A DNA stretch of 64,000 nt from a virus (IMGVR_UViG_3300036802_000003:75245-139244); one strand, 5' to 3'. Counted from the first letter of the stretch, positions 163 to 37,589 are shown. The notes: generated by a model not told the origin, from the letters alone. Program-made: numbers and translations.

Positions 163-843
163 ATGGCTAACTTTTTCTATATTACTGTCGATACTGTTGG
201 TCCAGCTAACCCTACAGCTAGCATAGAGAGTGGAGCACAATACACTACTAAACAACTTGTAAACATCGCTATAGGAACAACAGATGCTAGTACGGTTGGA
301 TACCAGATGAAGATTTGGGGAGATGTAGACAAGGCTTATGATTCTGATATTCAGGATATAGAGGCATCGTCTAACTGGATTTCTTATACAACTACGAAAC
401 AAATTAAGCTAACAGCAGGTGACGCAGATAAGAACATTAGTATCAAGATTAGAGATGATGTATTGAATGAATCAGCAGTAGCATCGGATGGTATCAAGCT
501 TAGTGCAACGTTACCAAACGTTACTTCAGTTGCTTCTGATGTACGTGTGTCTAAGAAGGCTACTAAAGATGGATACACATTCACCTTCTCTGCTGATAAG
601 CCATTTGTGGAGTACGCAGTTAAGGTAGTAGCTAATGCATCATCAGCACAGAACACAGGTACTACTATCCCAACTACTAACGGTTCTATTAACACAGCTG
701 GTACAGCAGGTAACTATGATACTTCTACTGTTCCTATCAACGTTACTATTAAGACAAATGACTTACTAGTAGCTAGCTCTGGTGATGGACAGAAGGGTAT
801 CAAAGTATTTGTTAAGGATGCCGCAGGGAACTGGAGTGCATAA
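163..843 (+). CDS. virion structural protein, tandem Ig-like (Big) domains; putative fibre shaft
   Basis: Beta-rich; N-terminal ITVDT..P and C-terminal DAAGNWS motifs typical of bacterial Ig-like repeats. Confidence 0.6.
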   Translation: MANFFYITVDTVGPANPTASIESGAQYTTKQLVNIAIGTTDASTVGYQMKIWGDVDKAYDSDIQDIEASSNWISYTTTKQIKLTAGDADKNISIKIRDDVLNESAVASDGIKLSATLPNVTSVASDVRVSKKATKDGYTFTFSADKPFVEYAVKVVANASSAQNTGTTIPTTNGSINTAGTAGNYDTSTVPINVTIKTNDLLVASSGDGQKGIKVFVKDAAGNWSA

Positions 844-845
844 TT

Positions 846-1298
846 ATGGGTAACTTTTTCACTATAACCGTAGATACTACACCTCCAACTATTGAGATTA
901 CACATCCCAGACAACCTATCTATGGGGCTAATACAGAGATTATAGTGAAAGCTAACGAAGAATTGGCAGAGTACCAGGGTCTGTACATTGTTGACAGTCT
1001 TGGTACTCGTCATTCTCTTATAGGTACGTTAGACTATGACACTATTACTTACAAGACTAACTTCATCGGTATAGCTCTAGGTACTTGCAGAATCTATTGT
1101 ACGGTAAAGGATGTTGTGGACAATATGTCAGAGGAATATGTATCAGTAATCAATCTAAGAACGTCAGCACTAGCTAATAAACAAGACTTAGAAGTAGGCA
1201 ACTACTCACTGATAACCATGGAAGTATGGGAGACACCAATTGTAGACATGGAAGTAGGTGTGATGCCTAGAGTCATCATAGAGGAAGGGGAGTGGTAA
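846..1298 (+). CDS. Ig-like structural protein, paralog of 163..843 N-terminus
   Basis: MGNFFTITVDTTPP matches MANFFYITVDTVGP; D..DN.S Ig motif. Confidence 0.55.
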   Translation: MGNFFTITVDTTPPTIEITHPRQPIYGANTEIIVKANEELAEYQGLYIVDSLGTRHSLIGTLDYDTITYKTNFIGIALGTCRIYCTVKDVVDNMSEEYVSVINLRTSALANKQDLEVGNYSLITMEVWETPIVDMEVGVMPRVIIEEGEW

Positions 1299-1299
1299 T

Positions 1300-1614
1300 A
1301 TGTTACAGAAGAACCAAGGAGCTATAGTATACCAGACAGGTAATACTCAGCGTTTCTGGTGTATGTTTAGAGACCACAATAACAAGATTATAGAGCCAGA
1401 CATGGTTAAGTTCCGTATCATGGATACAAAGACAGAGAAGCCAATAGAAGAGTTCGATGTACCTAAGACACAGAGAATAGAAGGTGCATACTATTACGAC
1501 TTCATACTGCCAGCTAAAGCTCAAATAATCACATACGAATGGTATAGCGAAACAGGAGGGTATCCAAACTTAAAGCGTAAGCAGTTCGACACTAAGTTCC
1601 TAGGACGTTGGTGA
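1300..1614 (+). CDS. putative structural adaptor protein (BppU-N/Ig-like)
   Basis: Operon context; YQTGNT...F.D...PD.V.F.I pattern. Confidence 0.35.
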   Translation: MLQKNQGAIVYQTGNTQRFWCMFRDHNNKIIEPDMVKFRIMDTKTEKPIEEFDVPKTQRIEGAYYYDFILPAKAQIITYEWYSETGGYPNLKRKQFDTKFLGRW

Positions 1615-1618
1615 GTAT

Positions 1619-2554
1619 ATGGGCGTAATAACAGATGGATTAATTGGATACTGGAATGCACAGAAGGATTGTACACCTACTTTGTGGAAGAATATTGCTC
1701 CTGCTACTGTAGGAACACTAGATGCGATTCCACAAGGAGGTAACCTAGTCATCGAGGGGGATGGCGTGGTTAACATAGCACCAAGATATTTAACAGTACC
1801 AGGCATTAACCTGTCTACAGGTCAGTCTACTATGGAGATAGTATTTTCTCTTAGGAGACCAGAGGATGCTACTAAGATGACAATGATTATGTTCGGTGTA
1901 GGGTTCGAGATGTTAGCCTTAGCTAAGACAGGTACCCAATTAAATGCACTAGGTGCTATCACTAGACCTGTTCAGCTTAACGTGGACACAGTGTTGGATG
2001 GTAAGACTCAGTTAGCAATAGTTAATACTGGTGGTGCTGGTGATGTATACATGAACGGTGTTAAGATTGGTACCATGCCTGGTCTAGGTAACTACACTAA
2101 GAACAACTATAATCTGTACCTTGGTGCATCATTCCTTAGTGGTACTGCTGGACAACAGTTCGATGGTAAGATACATGTGGCTAGAATGTATAACAAGGCA
2201 CTGACTCCTGCACAAATACTAGAGAACTATAACAGTTCCTCTGATATAGGACTCACCAATCCTGCACCATTAGTGACTATCACTAACATAACAAGGACTA
2301 CTGTGAGTAAGAAGCTAGGGGTAGACAAAGCTACTGTTACATTCAAGTTCGATAAGGATGTACAGAAGTATGAGTTTAGAGCAGGTGGTATGGGGCAAGG
2401 ACTTGGTGTACTATTAGGTGCAGGTACAAGTAAGACTGCTAACCAAGTCATTACCGCTGACCTATACTATTCTGACCAACTATTAGAAGGTATCAACAAG
2501 ATAAATATCTATGGACAAGATATGGCAGGCAACTGGACACCTTACGAATCCTAA
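1619..2554 (+). CDS. LamG/concanavalin-like lectin domain + C-terminal Ig-like domain; putative fibre tip/adhesin
   Basis: GLIGYWNA...FDGKIHVARMYNKALTPAQILENY is a LamG signature; C-terminus DMAGNWT is paralogous to 163..843. Confidence 0.7.
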   Translation: MGVITDGLIGYWNAQKDCTPTLWKNIAPATVGTLDAIPQGGNLVIEGDGVVNIAPRYLTVPGINLSTGQSTMEIVFSLRRPEDATKMTMIMFGVGFEMLALAKTGTQLNALGAITRPVQLNVDTVLDGKTQLAIVNTGGAGDVYMNGVKIGTMPGLGNYTKNNYNLYLGASFLSGTAGQQFDGKIHVARMYNKALTPAQILENYNSSSDIGLTNPAPLVTITNITRTTVSKKLGVDKATVTFKFDKDVQKYEFRAGGMGQGLGVLLGAGTSKTANQVITADLYYSDQLLEGINKINIYGQDMAGNWTPYES

Positions 2555-2596
2555 GGGCAGGGCTACTCTTTCTAGAGTGTTCCTGCCTTTTCTTTA
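2555..2596 (+). terminator. Rho-independent terminator
   Basis: AGGGCAGG...CCTGCCTT stem followed by T-tract after operon. Confidence 0.6.
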
Positions 2597-3562
2597 TGTA
2601 TAGAAATGGTAACCATACACAGATGTGTTTCGATGTAAAAGTTCAGGTGTCCAGAATCGTTTTATTTGGTATAACTTTCAACCATTTGAATAATGTATCG
2701 AAATACCTATAGTTTATAACTGTAACCGTCAGTTAGGAAGCAGTTATTAAAAGTAAAGTTTAGTTCAGTACTCACTGACACACACTTTACTGTGATAGCA
2801 AGCATCCAGAACGGAGCTAGAAAACATACGTTTAACTAGTGTTTTCTTACATGGAGAGCTTGCTATCAAGCGTACATCTCCTTTATAGTTGCTAGACAAT
2901 GAAGAGAGTTCTTTTATATAAGGACTCTCTTTTTTGTATGCCTTTATATCGTTACAACTCATCACTTTTCTCAATCTCCTATTTCTAAATCAATAAACTA
3001 AGGAGATGAATCCTATAGGATTTATGAGAATCATTTGAGTAGAAACGATATTTAGGGCATGTGCCCCAAAGGGGTGCTTGGTTACAAGGTAGCCAACACA
3101 ACTGGCAACAGGGGCTACCGAGCATGTACACGGAGCATAGCGGAGGTGTCAGCGGAGCCATACGGATGCATAGCGGAGTATGGAGGTATCCAGCGGATTA
3201 CCTGTAGCGTACCCTAGTTGACACTTGGGACAGGATAGTGTGGGTGGGAAACTATGCCTAAAAGTATAGGAATAGTTACTGAGTATATGGATGTACTCAG
3301 GGAATCCCAAGGATTTATAGGAATAGGAGAGTAGTTATGGATTCACAGTTCTATTAAGGTAGATGAGGACATACAGTAGGAAACAGAGTAGGGATTGGCG
3401 GAGAACACCCGTTTGGGGTGCCCGTACCGCCCCCTATAGGCACATCATAGCTAATTTTCCTACTCCAACTCACTTCTCTTATCTTACAAATTGCTACCTA
3501 CACACAGCCAAGATATGGCATCACTCACGTATAAAACTACTAAAGGAGAGTGCCACACTATT

Positions 3563-3868
3563 ATGTCAGAGAATAACTTCATTACCAGTAAGCCTCATCT
3601 AGGTACTGACTCCTCATACGGAGCAGACAGAGACCATATAGATAAACAATTCAACAGTATACAACAGGGCACTGCCCCTACGTGCATTGTATGCACGAAT
3701 ACGGCAAGCTACAAACTAATACCCAAACACTCACACAACAATACAGCGGAGATACAGGATAGAGGATATGTGTGTGAACACTGTCTTAAGCAACAGTATT
3801 TTAAACCAGAAGAGTATGGTATTAGAGCAATACCTACTACTAACAACCCTGGAGGTAGCCTACTATGA
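3563..3868 (+). CDS. hypothetical Zn-finger protein
   Basis: CxxC...CxxC; SD AAGGAG upstream of ATG 3563. Confidence 0.6.
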   Translation: MSENNFITSKPHLGTDSSYGADRDHIDKQFNSIQQGTAPTCIVCTNTASYKLIPKHSHNNTAEIQDRGYVCEHCLKQQYFKPEEYGIRAIPTTNNPGGSLL

Positions 3869-9870: not shown

Positions 9871-10101
9871 ATGATAAACCTATATGGAACAGTAACACCA
9901 GAGGTAAAGGAATGGATAGCAAAGGAGATACGTGGTAATATAGAGGGTACTAGTGCATGGCTAGTAGGTAAGGGTAAAGACCCTATCAAGTATACGGAAG
10001 AGGATATTGAATGCCTAGTAATAGACTTCCTAAATGGGGTACATGAACAGGTTACTATTGATATGGCTAGTAGATTCGAGATAGAGGGGGACTTACTATA
10101 A
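9871..10101 (+). CDS. hypothetical early protein
   Basis: ATG (MINLYG) after AAAGGAGAG SD. Confidence 0.7.
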   Translation: MINLYGTVTPEVKEWIAKEIRGNIEGTSAWLVGKGKDPIKYTEEDIECLVIDFLNGVHEQVTIDMASRFEIEGDLL

Positions 10102-10319
10102 TGGGTACTATTACAGATGAGCAGGTATTAGAATGGCTAAAGGAAAAGGTAGTAGCAGAGGCTAAGAACTGTAGGGAGCAGGGCTTCCATGTACCTAGTA
10201 TGACACAGTATGATGTGGATAGGGCTGCTAGTAACTTATTAGAGGATATAGACCAACACTTGGTAGCTAAGGCTATAGAGGACGCACTAGGTATAGACAT
10301 GAATAACCCAGACTACTAG
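10101..10319 (+). CDS. hypothetical early protein
   Basis: Coupled ORF; terminator follows (~10329-10362). Confidence 0.7.
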   Translation: MGTITDEQVLEWLKEKVVAEAKNCREQGFHVPSMTQYDVDRAASNLLEDIDQHLVAKAIEDALGIDMNNPDY

Positions 10320-10598
10320 ATAATATACACCCTATATACACAAACGTATATAGGGTTTTCTTATGCTCGTTTCTATGAGAGGTACCTACAAATGCACTTC
10401 CTATTAAAGCAACTCGGTTCGCTCATCAGAATCTCCTCCCACCATTCAATCCCCTCCACCAACCTTTCGCTCTACAAAAAGTTCTAACACTCACCTACTC
10501 GAATTTCTCCTGCTTCAATCTTCTGACCCTTTCTCCTTTCTGGTGGATCCACTTACAGAGTTGATATAGCACTCACATAGGAGCAGAGGAGGGCATAG

Positions 10599-10627
10599 AA
10601 AAAGGGAGTACCAATTGGTACTCCCTT
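10599..10627 (-). terminator. Rho-independent terminator of minus-strand early arm
   Basis: AAAAA-GGGAGTACCAATTGGTACTCCC perfect hairpin. Confidence 0.7.
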
Positions 10628-10635
10628 ACACTCAC

Positions 10636-10941
10636 TTACATAGGGGACACTATAGCTATAGGAGGCAGTGTCTCTACTTCAAATCCACGCTCCGTATACC
10701 ACTCAGTAGTGGCACTTATCCACTCACTCATACTTGTCTCTACGTCATCTATCTCTTCATCTAGAGGGTCTAACCCACGCACTCGATACATGATAGCCTT
10801 AACATCTGGGTAGTCAACCTCAGGTATCTCACCCTCACCACTCACTAGCAGTAAAGATACATACTCACTCTCACGTATGAAGTCACCTGCATCTAAATCA
10901 TAATATCCAAATGGCTCAACTGCTACTACTAACTTACTCAT
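10636..10941 (-). CDS. hypothetical early protein
   Basis: ORF after hairpin-RBS cassette. Confidence 0.75.
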   Translation of the reverse strand: MSKLVVAVEPFGYYDLDAGDFIRESEYVSLLLVSGEGEIPEVDYPDVKAIMYRVRGLDPLDEEIDDVETSMSEWISATTEWYTERGFEVETLPPIAIVSPM

Positions 10942-11013
10942 ACTTACCACTCCTCTTATCTAGGTAACCAATAGGTTCCATGATACCCCCTCCGTAGAGG
11001 GAGTACTAGCAAC

Positions 11014-11424
11014 TTACTGAATCTTACCAGCCGCACGTAGTGCCATAATAGTACGCATTCTCATAATCTGCTCGCTATCAGTAAACTCTACTGCTATATC
11101 GTTATCTAAGCAGAGTGTCATAAGAGCCTCCATAGTATAGTCTGCATATTTAGCTTTCTTCTTAGTAGATGGCTCCTTAGGATAGTGGAAGTATAGGATA
11201 GCCATACATACTCTCATTCTATGAATTTGTTCGTTATCATTAGGTGTGAATACTAATCCTTCTACTTGACACCAATCCTCTAGGATAGACACATCCAGTT
11301 GCTTATAGAATTTTTGTAGCCATTTCTTATCCTCGAAGATACCTACCTCAGGATATCCATTATTACTAGTAATCCATTCCATAGCGTCTACCTTACCGTT
11401 GATGATATTCTCTTTTTTACTCAT
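11014..11424 (-). CDS. early protein with two helical repeat modules
   Basis: Clear paralog of 12851..13252 and of the 5389..6207 C-terminus. Confidence 0.85.
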   Translation of the reverse strand: MSKKENIINGKVDAMEWITSNNGYPEVGIFEDKKWLQKFYKQLDVSILEDWCQVEGLVFTPNDNEQIHRMRVCMAILYFHYPKEPSTKKKAKYADYTMEALMTLCLDNDIAVEFTDSEQIMRMRTIMALRAAGKIQ

Positions 11425-11494
11425 ATCATATTCCTCCTATGCCTCTGTGGGCTGGTCTTGTAGGAGTCGGTGTGACCCGCTCCCCTTGAATAAA

Positions 11495-11530
11495 TTATAT
11501 CACGGGTGTGCCGATAACTCAAGGACGTTT
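11495..11530 (-). promoter_or_regulatory. early sigmaA promoter
   Basis: Minus strand AACGTCC-TTGAGT...TGATATAAT. Confidence 0.8.
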
Positions 11531-11909
11531 ACTCGTATAGGATGGGGCATACACCTAGCCCTGTTGGGCTTTCTATGGGGGTTACCTACAAACTCCTTTC
11601 AAATAAAGCAATCGGAGTTCGCTTATCAATTACTTTCTCCCCACCAATATACCCAACAACAACCCTTCGCTCATATATCTTTTGTATGTGAATTTCTCTC
11701 TTCTCTCTCTTTCATATACAAATGGTTCTGACTGATTTTGAAGCAGAAAACTGACACAGAACAACACACCAAACACAATTTTTGAGCTACAACTTTTGTA
11801 CCCAAATTTCTTGTTGAAACCGTTTTGAACCCTTTTGCCCTTCCACTCACAAAGATGCGAAAACGGGCTAAAAGATGCCCTACACCCACAAACGCACAAA
11901 AATAGACAC

Positions 11910-12065
11910 CTACTTACTGTAGGTGTCTTGATACGCTTCTAACTGCTTCTCTACTCCAGGGTGTGTCCACGTCACTGCTGTATACACAAGGTTACAAGCT
12001 AGGTAAAGGAGCGTACACGCTCCTGTTACCACTAGCACTCGCTTAATCGTTCTAACAGTCTTCAC
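11910..12065 (-). CDS. small membrane protein (51 aa)
   Basis: GGAGGTG SD before GTG 12065; single hydrophobic segment. Confidence 0.6.
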   Translation of the reverse strand: MKTVRTIKRVLVVTGACTLLYLACNLVYTAVTWTHPGVEKQLEAYQDTYSK

Positions 12066-12201
12066 TAGGCTCACCTCCGTTACAGTCGTCACAGATGTCC
12101 ATAGGGTCATCATACGCTGGGTCATTAGGGCACTGCTTCTGGAACATCTTACCACACAGGTCACACGTTACACTCTCTAGATAGTACTTTACGTTACTCA
12201 C
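12052..12201 (-). CDS. Zn-ribbon microprotein (49 aa)
   Basis: Hand-translated MSNVKYYLESVTCDLCG...ICDDCN; SD GGAGGTG. Confidence 0.6.
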   Translation of the reverse strand: MSNVKYYLESVTCDLCGKMFQKQCPNDPAYDDPMDICDDCNGGEPSEDC

Positions 12202-12518
12202 AGGATTCCACCTCCGATACTCACGATACCCTTACGAGCGTACCTCATCAGGTACTCTAGGTTGTTCCTAGCACTCTGCTCACTCACTACTCCAGTACTC
12301 ATCAACGGTACTACACTGCCCACTAACGAGTCGTTCACTGCTACGATAGAGGCACAGAACTCATCCTCCTGCACTTGGTCTAGGATAACCACCCAGATAG
12401 ACTCAGTACCTTCATACTCACGAGCATCACTGCCCACCATACGGAAGTAGTGCATCTCACTAGGTGAATTCTCCTCCAGAATAACCCACTCAGGGACGTA
12501 CGTTTTAGTTTTACCCAT
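12198..12518 (-). CDS. hypothetical early protein
   Basis: ORF after hairpin-RBS cassette. Confidence 0.75.
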   Translation of the reverse strand: MGKTKTYVPEWVILEENSPSEMHYFRMVGSDAREYEGTESIWVVILDQVQEDEFCASIVAVNDSLVGSVVPLMSTGVVSEQSARNNLEYLMRYARKGIVSIGGGIL

Positions 12519-12595
12519 ACTAACCACTCCTTTTCACTAGGTAGCTAAGTAGCTCCAGGGCACCCACCCCCGTAGGGGTGAGCACTAGCAGATAC

Positions 12596-12775
12596 TTACC
12601 CCACTAGGGACGCTACTAACTCAACGTCCTCGTAGTCCACTGACAGGGCAATCTTAGACCCATCAGTACACTCAATGATGATACCGTTCCACTCACCTTC
12701 ACCGTCCCAGTTCTCACTCACGGTACTCACAGTCTTACCCTCTAAGGACTTCACAAGACTCCAAAACTTACTCAC
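12596..12775 (-). CDS. hypothetical early protein
   Basis: ORF after hairpin-RBS cassette. Confidence 0.7.
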   Translation of the reverse strand: MSKFWSLVKSLEGKTVSTVSENWDGEGEWNGIIIECTDGSKIALSVDYEDVELVASLVG

Positions 12776-12850
12776 ACTAACCACTCCTTTTGTCTAGGTA
12801 GCTTACACAAGCTCCATGGGATACCCCCCGTAGGGGGTAGCCTAGCAACC

Positions 12851-13252
12851 CTAAGCTTTCTCGATGTGACCTGCTGCACGTAGCGCCATGATAGTTCGCA
12901 TACGCATAATCTGTTCAGACTCTGTGTACTCCACCGCCACGTCGTTGTCTAGGCACATCTGCATAAGCTGTTCCATAGTGTAGTCTGCGTACTTAGCTTT
13001 TTTCTTAGCGGAAGGCTCCTTAGGGAAGTGTAGGTACAGGATAGCCATACACATCCGCATACGGTTGATAGCCTCAGAATCCTCACAAGGTTTGAACTCT
13101 AGTCCTTCGATACCAATCCAGTCACCTAGAGTTACATCATCAAGTTGTTTGTAGAACTTCTGTAGGTCTTTTTTCTCTGTGAAGTGCCCTACCTCTGGAA
13201 AACCGTTTTCCTCTACGTGCTTCACTGCGTCTACCTTTTTCGCTTTAGCCAT
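12851..13252 (-). CDS. early protein with two helical repeat modules
   Basis: Paralog of 11014..11424. Confidence 0.85.
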   Translation of the reverse strand: MAKAKKVDAVKHVEENGFPEVGHFTEKKDLQKFYKQLDDVTLGDWIGIEGLEFKPCEDSEAINRMRMCMAILYLHFPKEPSAKKKAKYADYTMEQLMQMCLDNDVAVEYTESEQIMRMRTIMALRAAGHIEKA

Positions 13253-13349
13253 AATCAATCAATCTCCTTTTCGCTCTTGAGTTTTTTGTGTAGGTCGTGG
13301 GTACCGTCCGTGTGTTGCTCTGGTGTGGTGCCCTCTTCCTCTTGAACTA

Positions 13350-13386
13350 AGTTTACCACGAAACGGAGGTAAAGTCAAGGACGTTT
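13350..13386 (-). promoter_or_regulatory. early sigmaA promoter
   Basis: Minus strand AACGTCC-TTGACT...TGGTAAACT. Confidence 0.75.
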
Positions 13387-13579
13387 CCCTACTTAGAGTG
13401 GGGGTATATCCCTAGCCCTAGGCGTTTCTATGGGGTCTAGGTAGAAACTTGCTTCATATAAAGAAGAGCGAGGTATCGCTTCACCACCAGTTCCCCCACC
13501 ACAACCCTTATCTTTAATATAAATATAATATAATGTTCTAATATCCTCTTTCTTCTATATAATTTCCTTTTAGTATACT

Positions 13580-13752
13580 AATAATACGATATATGCATAT
13601 TACACACTTAATATATACACAAAACACAATATACTAAAACACATACTCTTAATAAGCGAATAATACGATATATACGGGCTATAACACTAAATCACAATAA
13701 CACGATATCCTTGGGGCAGGACATTACTTGCAATATACGAATAATACGATAT
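13580..13752 (+). repeat. four AATAA[T/C]ACGATAT direct repeats in AT-rich non-coding DNA
   Basis: Copies at 13580, 13659, 13696, 13740. Confidence 0.7.
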
Positions 13753-14422
13753 ACACGGACTGTAGACATCGAGCATTTGCGTGGCGCAGGACAGGGCTTA
13801 GGGCGTACCTGATACAGCAGAGGCAGCGCTATAGTGCCTAAGCGTTCCAGCAGTCCGTGGGGCAGCACTAAGACGCTAGGCGTCCCCAGAATCCTTGGGG
13901 CAGTCTTAGATAGTAATCGACGTTCGTTATCACTTACTCTCTTCACCACCAATTACCCCACCACCAACCTTTCGTACTAAATAGATATTATAAACTCTAC
14001 TCTCTTATAACTTTCATCTGCTAACTATGTTCATCTTCCTTCCTCTTTTTCTTTTTGTGCCTTCAACTCCTACAACTATCAACTGTACACATTTTGTTAC
14101 TGTATGTTTTCTCTCTTCTTCGTCTATGGTCTCGTTTTGACTGTACGTGGTATATGCCTCCGCATTTAAATTTTTTATTAAAGCTTAAAGATATAAATAC
14201 TTAAAAGAGTCTTTTAATATACTCTTTTTTAAATTAAAAAATAAATACTTAAAAGCTTTAAATTACGTACGAAGTACGTAACTAAAAAGCGATAGCGACC
14301 ATAGGAACGTCCCACCTGCAAGGAGTAGATTATAGGATGGTGGGTCATCCTCTACCAGTTTCGTAGGAAGGAGAAGATTTGGGACTTGTTCCCTTCTTTT
14401 AGTGCAAAGGGAGGTTGTGAGC

Positions 14423-36256: not shown

Positions 36257-36531
36257 AGGTGGAGAAGACTTTTCGCAAGGGGGCTTTTTTTAAAGCGAAC
36301 AGGGCGAGAGAGTTAACATTACTCGACTGGGACACGACAAGGTAGGAAGCCTACCTTCCCCTTGCTAGGGGTTCAGGATTTGTGTTAAAAACTATAACTC
36401 AAGTATATTCTAACCTGAGCCTCTAGCAAGGGGTGGATAGTCCCCCACCTCTTTCCCTAATAGGATATTCCCCATATTCTATCCCATACCTTTGTTGGTG
36501 GGAGGAACGTTACCCTCCTACCACTCTTTTT

Positions 36532-36602
36532 GGAGCCTTAGTTTAATGGTAAAACAGGGTGCTCATAACACTCCATCGTAGGTTCGATACCTACAGGCTC
36601 CA
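36532..36602 (+). tRNA. tRNA-Met/Ile2 (CAT)
   Basis: Full cloverleaf: GGAGCCT/AGGCTCC, GTTT/AAAC, GGGTG-CTCATAA-CACTC, GTAGG-TTCGATA-CCTAC; no encoded CCA. Confidence 0.85.
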
Positions 36603-36820
36603 TCAGTAAGTTGGAAATGTGACAGTGGTAGATGCAGTAGTGTCATGGGGTCACATAGTACGCATGAAGGGGTTTAGGGCGTACATACTAAACGAGCACA
36701 TGTTCGTTGTCTTTTTAACAATACTGTTTGTTTTCGTGAGTATTGTTCTACTGAACGTATGTGTAGTGTGGAAAGCTTACATACACCCGATAGTGGGTGT
36801 GGAAAGCCCACTATCATCTT

Positions 36821-36892
36821 TACCCCATAGCTCAAAGGTAAGAGCAACTAGTCAAGGCTAGGAAGGTGCAAGTTCGAAACTTGTTGGGGTAG
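36821..36892 (+). pseudogene. tRNA-like element with truncated anticodon loop
   Basis: Intact acceptor TACCCCA/TGGGGTA, D and T arms; anticodon arm CTAGT-CAAG-GCTAG. Confidence 0.65.
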
Positions 36893-37056
36893 TAAGGTAT
36901 AAGTGTATAGATCTGCCATGGTATACTTACCCTCTGGAGCGTTATACTATACGAGTGTGCAGGGGTGACCACACTTCCCTACGTCAGGGCTAACAGGCGT
37001 ACCCTTATCTCTGGTCAGTAGATTAACAGAACTGACCTTCACCCCATCTTAATATG

Positions 37057-37323: not shown

Positions 37324-37506
37324 CTATTATGAAGGTGACTATGAATTGGTCATGGTAATTTGTGGGGGCATCCCCCTACCACCTTCTCCTATCATGGGCA
37401 TTAGCCCACCGTCTACTATCCCATTAAACGGTTTGAAACGGTCTGCCAACCATAGAATCTATTGTAGATTCAACAACTACTTGTAGGGGTCACTCCCTAC
37501 ATCCCT

Positions 37507-37578
37507 GGGGGTATAGTTTAACAGGTAAAACAGTGGTCTCCAAAACCACCGTCCTAGGTTCGAATCCTAGTACCCTCG
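37507..37578 (+). tRNA. tRNA-Trp (CCA)
   Basis: Full cloverleaf; GTGGT-CTCCAAA-ACCAC; CTAGG-TTCGAAT-CCTAG. Confidence 0.9.
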
Positions 37579-37589
37579 TTACCTACATT

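Follow-up and report, generated by a model that had tools for sequence, protein, structure and literature searches.

The four-gene cassette

The DNA analysed is a stretch of 64,000 nucleotides (IMGVR_UViG_3300036802_000003:75245-139244, called the window below) from a 139,244-bp Herelleviridae genome. The subject is a group of four adjacent genes at its start, whose products are predicted to complete one another's immunoglobulin (Ig)-like folds. Bacillus phages CP-51, Shanette and JL show 86-88% identity to the window at the DNA level, and the hosts of these closest relatives are Gram-positive bacteria of the Bacillus cereus group. The open reading frames (ORFs) starting at positions 163, 846, 1300 and 1619 are named A, C, D and B, respectively. 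They are co-directional on the plus strand, with the coordinates given beforehand by an earlier interpretation made from the sequence without database searches (the sequence-only reading). They correspond to gp159-162 of CP-51, all of which are annotated as hypothetical. The cassette is located at the end of the replication block, just ahead of the genome terminus. The stop of A abuts the start of C, the two genes being in different frames, and the Shine-Dalgarno match of A is the strongest of the four. Feature coordinates are given in Table 1.

Table 1. Features of the cassette and the adjoining hairpin, in window coordinates (aa, amino acids; nt, nucleotides; D1 and D2, the two Ig-like domains of A; AF2, AlphaFold2; LamG, laminin G)
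Feature	Position	Strand	Description or basis
Gene A	163..843	+	226 aa; N-terminal donor strand, complete Ig-like D1, Ig-like D2 predicted to lack the G strand (donor and acceptor)
A residues 2-14, orphan G strand (donor)	166..204	+	Unpaired in the monomer model; residues 2-12 fill the G slot of the partner when two copies are modelled
A domain D1, residues 15-113, complete	205..501	+	Has G strand 107-113; shows homology to giant Ig-array repeats
A domain D2, residues 119-226, acceptor	517..840	+	Ends at F strand 212-218 plus G-N-W-S loop
A D2 acceptor groove	between A' (residues 124-130) and F (residues 207-215)	+	AF2 monomer and two-copy models
Gene C	846..1298	+	150 aa; donor strand (nt 849-887) and complete D1-like domain; donor only
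C variable low-complexity tail	about residues 109-150	+	Sequence
Gene D	1300..1614	+	104 aa; free-standing six-strand beta-sandwich (predicted)
Gene B	1619..2554	+	311 aa; LamG/ConA-like head and C-terminal D2-like domain; acceptor only
B LamG/ConA-like head, residues 57-200	1787-2218	+	Pfam Laminin_G_3
B acceptor domain, residues 205-311	2231-2551	+	Ends 5 residues past G-N-W
Terminator-like hairpin	2901..2932	+	13-bp stem and T run; consensus scan only

Each product matched one PHROG family end to end: A phrog_10898 (E 1.4e-101), C phrog_18400 (E 1.1e-76), D phrog_18294 (E 5.3e-60) and B phrog_17347 (E 2.7e-153). All four families are listed as of unknown function. No Pfam match was found for A, C or D, and sequence searches of the PDB with A and C gave nothing significant. 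Residues 57-200 of B matched Laminin_G_3 (PF13385; E 3.2e-12, 47.3 bits, above the gathering cut-off of 27.6), so the LamG head that the sequence-only reading had assigned to this protein is present. No obvious signal peptide was seen in A, B, C or D when the sequences were inspected by eye.

An orphan strand and two open domains

In giant Ig-array proteins the end of a repeat reads ...AGNWS, then about nine residues, then DT..AP, which is the ending that the sequence-only reading had quoted as normal. In the cassette this ending is divided between genes. A starts with MANFFYITVDTVGP and ends in ...DAAGNWSA, one residue past the G-N-W-S loop. C starts with MGNFFTITVDTTPP, and the first 14 residues of A and C match almost letter for letter. 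B ends in ...DMAGNWTPYES, five residues past G-N-W. A therefore carries a donor strand and an open end, C a donor strand, and B an open end, as had been claimed. The spacing in uncut arrays equals that of the C-terminus of A joined to the next N-terminus, so joining the end of A to the start of A or C gives a sequence that resembles a domain without a cut. The last ~105 residues of B are paralogous to D2 of A, again as claimed (BLASTP E 6e-4; hidden Markov model (HMM) E 2.9e-20), and phrog_10898 also matches B at residues 205-282 (E 6.9e-7).

This arrangement is conserved. In a set of 242 full-length A homologues the D-T-x-x-P strand lies inside the first 24 residues in 223, and the stop falls at most three residues from G-x-W-S in 214. 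Among homologues of A, B and C the donor motif and the truncated end are almost always kept. Residues 2-14 of A are more conserved than the protein average (1.24 vs 1.62 bits). Across the whole 139-kb genome the donor motif was found in A and C only and the open C-terminal end in A and B only. A decayed or mis-sequenced single long Ig gene was considered and rejected, since the cut points are kept in hundreds of homologues and A and C are in different frames.

Structure models

The AF2 monomer model of A, built with 73 homologues, had a predicted local distance difference test score (pLDDT) of 95.8. In this model residues 1-17 are without secondary structure, D1 (18-113) has its own G strand, and D2 (120-218) stops at the F strand (212-218) and has no G strand. 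When two copies of A were modelled together the interface score ipSAE was 0.65 (0.62-0.66 between runs) compared to 0.22 for the best control. At least 96% of contacts agreed between runs and the partner pLDDT was at least 92. In calibration the pass mark for this score was reached by 20 of 30 solved pairs and by 1 of 23 single chains. A pass of this kind supports binding of A to A rather than showing it.

The predicted interface is asymmetric and, as the sequence-only reading had proposed, head to tail. Residues 2-12 and the D1 loop 99-102 of copy 2 contact D2 alone of copy 1. Residues 214 down to 208 of the acceptor face residues 4 up to 9 of the donor, antiparallel to the F strand, while residues 124-130 face residues 5-9, parallel to A'. 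The donor strand thus occupies the G-strand slot. The C-terminus of the acceptor (residue 225) shares the interface with the N-terminal residues of the donor, as would be expected of a nick in the F-G loop. Since the strand of copy 1 and the groove of copy 2 stay free, the contact can be repeated in the model. A reciprocal domain-swapped dimer was rejected, since D2 is all that one copy brings to the interface and the other brings nothing but its N-terminal strand and a D1 loop.

Foldseek searches with A returned only generic tandem Ig/FN3 arrays, the best matches being fragments of GhpA and SiiE. D was modelled by AF2 (pLDDT 85) as a plain six-strand sandwich. Foldseek with D against the PDB found generic beta-sandwiches only (best E 0.018), and an Atlas feature search with D gave only weak MG2 and BppU_N leads. 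An anchor or an assembly factor is a candidate role for D.

Covariation

Covariation was computed on the 242 A homologues (effective number of sequences 169), giving 21,115 ranked long-range pairs. The pair 6-210, which joins the N-terminal strand to D2, ranked 7th, level with intradomain contacts. Pairs 101-135 and 99-128 ranked 5th and 14th and mapped to the same predicted A-A interface. Both link the F-G loop of D1 to the top of D2 and touch in the two-copy model; from Ig topology their sites would lie at opposite ends of an extended monomer. Residues of the interface were enriched as partners of the N-terminal strand beyond all 195 circular shifts. Among 33 distinct cassettes, residue 210 of A tracked residue 6 of A (mutual information 0.95) and not residue 6 of C, and Y6 was paired with Q210 in all six cassettes having Y6. 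As residue 210 follows A's own residue 6, a contact of A on A is favored. Cross-protein covariation was also used to compare A and C as the donor to B; it gave many low p-values, which arise from the shared phylogeny of the 33 cassettes.

A different explanation is that no strand passes between molecules at all. The strand of A would fold back on its own D2 as a circular permutation, or a six-strand D2 would be stable as it is, and the products would be independent Ig-like accessory or decoration proteins. The 6-210 pair cannot separate closure in cis from closure in trans, and a side-by-side placement of D1 and D2 is geometrically conceivable. However, with the same alignment AF2 leaves residues 1-17 unpaired at high overall confidence, so that in the monomer the N-terminus is free and D2 incomplete. 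When two copies are modelled, the strand enters the other chain and does so asymmetrically. B has no strand and C no groove, so both need partners in any case, and a natural fusion described below sets the strand of C exactly behind the truncated end of A. An explanation without strand exchange between molecules is considered very improbable.

Distribution and variants

A word-indexed search found 635 A homologues of 223-228 aa and an exhaustive search 853. Gene order was surveyed at 135 fetched loci, referred to by L numbers where needed. The four genes co-occur in two orders, A-C-D-B and A-B-C-D, and D always adjoins C. Judged by gene content and order, they are one conserved mobile phage cassette. 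It is common in phages of Bacillus and clostridia. The isolated phages that bear it include the 160-170-kb siphophages Tsamsa, PBC2, Izhevsk and the Thrax series. The acceptor domain of B is constant while its head varies, being absent, LamG, or 258-823 aa of other sequence. LamG heads above the Pfam cut-off were also found in B of L020, L030 and L032. Such exchangeable heads, joined to a domain that is conserved, are consistent with a tip role for B.

A two-gene form without C and D was found in many prophages of Oscillospiraceae and Clostridia (L097-L140 and L043-L083; e.g., L052:6001-7040), with A of ~220 aa and B of ~123-170 aa. As C is missing from these clostridial prophages, A is the sole N-terminal donor there. 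B of this form continues past the G-x-W end with a conserved extension of 27 aa or ~55 aa; this extension may either close B itself in cis or serve A as a donor.

One locus (L084) encodes a natural in-frame fusion of A and C. The product, P0148 (372 aa), has the canonical 15 residues from the Trp to the strand-end Pro and is followed by D and a B of 120 aa. The fusion shows that the strand of C can close the domain of A. The assembly of this phage must, to judge from the fused gene, be B on A-C with no chaining.

The fusion bears on a second alternative, a closed 1:1:1 complex in which C closes A, A closes B and D is attached. This would give a fixed stalk of four Ig domains with a head and no polymer. 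The genome holds exactly two donors and two acceptors, the fused protein with its D and B can form nothing else, and the stop of A abuts the start of C. The head-to-tail contact of A on A nevertheless passes the complex test, and residue 210 covaries within A and not with C. Cassettes that lack C keep both the strand and the open groove of A. The Shine-Dalgarno match of A, the strongest of the four, is a weak hint that A is made in excess. The closed complex is considered unlikely, but of the other explanations it deserves serious attention.

Several variant homologues were observed. In P0136, P0139 and P0193 a domain of ~110 aa is inserted in a loop of D1 or D2 of A and both termini are kept, an arrangement reminiscent of an additional module displayed on a loop. 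L041 and L042 (5209-5955) encode a 248-aa C homologue whose donor strand is preceded by an N-terminal region of 130 aa that comprises three to four 34-residue repeats. The C-terminal strand of this homologue resembles the end of D, a holin and an endolysin follow, and no D or B was found at these loci. A homologues of 48-57% identity were present at L087-L089, L095, L096 and L100, which come from bins labeled Petrotogaceae, Kosmotogaceae, WWE3, Ignavibacteriota, Pacearchaeota and Bacteroidetes metagenome-assembled genomes. Either these are mis-binned phage contigs or the host range of the cassette is unusually wide.

Genomic context and possible virion location

The cassette is usually located beside late/structural, tail-fiber or lysis genes. 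In a Ureibacillus prophage distal-tail genes are followed by the cassette and then by a holin and an amidase. The cassette follows a baseplate wedge gene in L013 and a tail protein and endolysin in Tsamsa, and occupies a tail-fiber position in L002, L013 and L084. The Tsamsa holin is gp215 and its endolysin gp217 (PMC3903500). HNH/homing endonuclease genes were found directly upstream of the cassette in two unrelated phages (L016:4583-5515 and L037:5054-5971). These flanks, together with the siting in the replication block in CP-51-like phages and L016, suggest a mobile module, and the HNH neighbors hint at how it moves. In L038 (5845-10035), a high guanine-cytosine (GC) contig, A lies ~2.5 kb from an adjacent B-C pair among genes that by eye appear to be head or head-tail genes, which makes a capsid-side location there a possibility.

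The orthologue of A in Tsamsa is gp213, which has been remarked on solely as an "Ig-domain protein" (PMC3903500). The only relevant virion proteome found in the literature was that of Tsamsa; literature searches found no virion proteome covering the cassette, and no published description of strand donation in a phage particle.

A third alternative is that the assembly forms off the virion, being released at lysis or acting in or on the cell as a matrix or aggregation factor or a decoy, with the cassette carried as a moron. The cassette is outside the structural module in CP-51-like phages and L016, has HNH flanks in L016 and L037, follows the lysis genes in Tsamsa-like phages, and is not among the Tsamsa virion bands. 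That proteome, though, consists of six bands only. In several prophages the cassette comes after baseplate or distal-tail genes, in a tail-fiber position; the four proteins lack obvious signal peptides, and variable lectin-like heads are typical of virion adhesins. An off-virion role is considered improbable.

Proposed assembly

The reading that is preferred, at somewhat better than even probability, is a nicked Ig array held together by donor-strand complementation, in which A is the repeat, B the head cap and C the terminator of a virion fiber. A tandem array of Ig domains would have been cut at the F-G loop into separate polypeptides. D2 of A and the C-terminal domain of B would be made without a G strand, and the missing strand would form the first 12-14 residues of A and C. 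Once the polypeptides are made, a donor's strand would insert between A' and F of the open domain of the next subunit. This would restore a canonical Ig fold, and the first domain of the donor would stack on top. Insertion in trans and chaining of A are supported by the models. With both a strand and a groove A can chain head to tail. B, which has only a groove and an exchangeable head (LamG or other), would end the chain at the donor-less end, presumably on A or C, and C, with only a strand, at the opposite end. C, perhaps through its variable tail, and D would probably link the assembly to something else. The most likely product would be a flexible accessory virion fiber, short or long, that binds carbohydrate on the host surface.

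The following points count against the nicked-array reading. The two-copy model and the covariation share one alignment, so these two lines of evidence are not fully independent, and the 6-210 covariation would also fit an intramolecular fold-back. The pass in the complex test may be an echo of the continuous tandem Ig arrays used in training, from which the model could rebuild a canonical domain out of two chains by likeness, as happens with the halves of a split gene. The fusion in L084 closes the groove of A in cis, so chaining of A is not universal or obligatory. Longer, fused forms of C were not found by single-sequence search, and only P0148 was found by profile search. In CP-51-like phages and L016 the cassette is located among replication and not structural genes. 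Lastly, the Tsamsa homologues (gp210-213) are not listed in the virion proteome of six gel bands, which speaks against a virion location while not excluding it. The sequence-only reading had proposed a head-to-tail polymer of A, capped by a LamG tip and anchored through C and D. Of this, strand donation and chaining of A on A are supported in silico by the monomer and two-copy models and the 6-210 covariation, and obligatory chaining is not, given the fusion phage; the tip and anchor roles are putative.

A more specific version is judged possible but somewhat short of an even chance. In it A would self-assemble without a chaperone into an adhesive virion fiber of variable length, B would supply plug-in receptor-binding heads, C and D would terminate or anchor the fiber, and the cassette would move among myophages and siphophages of several bacterial phyla. 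No polymer of the donor-strand kind would have been described in a virus before, and nature would have its own equivalent of the tools for ligating split-domain proteins.

If the nicked-array reading is correct, viruses would join bacterial and archaeal pili as users of donor-strand complementation, and would do so with a cassette in which no dedicated chaperone or usher is recognized. Four PHROG families of unknown function, present in hundreds of phages and prophages, would gain a mechanism and a probable function. Among these phages and prophages are many clostridial prophages of the gut as well as CP-51, Tsamsa and PBC2, which are large phages of Bacillus anthracis/cereus. A long adhesin would be encoded cheaply as a short repeating gene and swappable heads, which bears on how phages change their adsorption targets. 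The pair of strand and open domain could also serve as a natural protein-assembly module.

Other features of the window

The hairpin in Table 1 is the first terminator-like site on the plus strand past the cassette, and none was found within the cassette by the same consensus scan; it is the probable end of the operon. Promoter-like sites were no more frequent than in shuffled sequence. The 1.3 kb following gene B (2555-3864) are without a convincing ORF, and scans of this gap matched no Rfam family and showed no repeats of note. The Shanette and JL records stop at a point matching ~3370 of the window, so this gap is probably the genome terminus or the boundary of a terminal repeat. A cluster of transfer RNA (tRNA) genes comprises tRNA-Met (36531-36604) and tRNA-Trp (37506-37579), with an odd tRNA-like call having a two-base anticodon between them (36820-36893). 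GC skew is negative only at 10000-14000, suggestive of a group of minus-strand genes.

Comparison with known systems

The closest parallel is with the chaperone-usher pili of Gram-negative bacteria, such as type 1 and P pili (FimH/FimG/FimF/FimA/FimI; PapG...PapA/PapH). In these pilins, as is predicted for A and B, an Ig-like fold lacks its C-terminal G strand and the N-terminal extension of a neighbor fills the groove. B resembles a FimH-type tip adhesin, which consists of a lectin and an acceptor-only pilin domain, and C resembles a PapH-type terminator, which donates a strand and has no usable groove. In the A-A model, as in these pili, the inserted strand is antiparallel to F and gives a canonical fold. 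Unlike a pilin, the A unit has two domains, one of them complete, and no sequence relation to pilins was detectable. Searches with PapD-like chaperone and usher families gave no match to ORFs 12, 163, 846, 1300, 1619 and 3865 at E up to 1. The cassette is therefore an analogue and not a member of the chaperone-usher systems. The sequence-only reading had spoken of a chaperone-usher logic, which holds in silico for the fold and the filling of the groove and does not extend to membership of the system. With a Gram-positive host and no obvious signal peptides, assembly would be cytoplasmic, unlike that of chaperone-usher pili.

A second comparison is with giant Ig-array adhesins, including the structural neighbors SiiE and GhpA, which share the F-G motif and its spacing. 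Residues 6-124 of A matched 10-22 repeats per protein in proteins of 1,000-7,500 aa (phmmer). The matched proteins carry Big_13 (PF19077) and Big_3_3 (PF13750), and A itself is below the Pfam threshold. The cassette domains appear to derive from adhesin repeats of the Big_13/Big_3_3 type. The giant arrays are single continuous chains, whereas in the cassette the chain is broken at the F-G loop and its pieces are distributed over three genes, with a break point that is conserved in hundreds of homologues.

Chaperone-free donor-strand fibers include Bacillus subtilis TasA, archaeal threads and bundling pili, and the type V pili of Bacteroidia. In these, as is proposed here, a strand is given to the beta-sandwich of the next subunit without an usher, and TasA is made in a Bacillus host. 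They differ from the cassette in having unrelated folds and families, and their products are secreted cellular structures. None is known to be phage-encoded, or to have a dedicated tip that only accepts or a terminator that only donates encoded within one cassette. Tailed phages also have Ig-like accessory and decoration proteins (T4 Hoc; surveyed by Fraser et al. 2006), whose domains may bind surface carbohydrate weakly. Descriptions of these proteins show whole domains that are either fused to structural proteins or attached to them, and none is known to have a split domain or a donated strand, which distinguishes them from the cassette proteins. SpyTag/SpyCatcher, an engineered split of CnaB2, is alike in that an Ig-like domain without its last strand is completed in trans by a strand peptide; it differs in being man-made and locked by an isopeptide bond.

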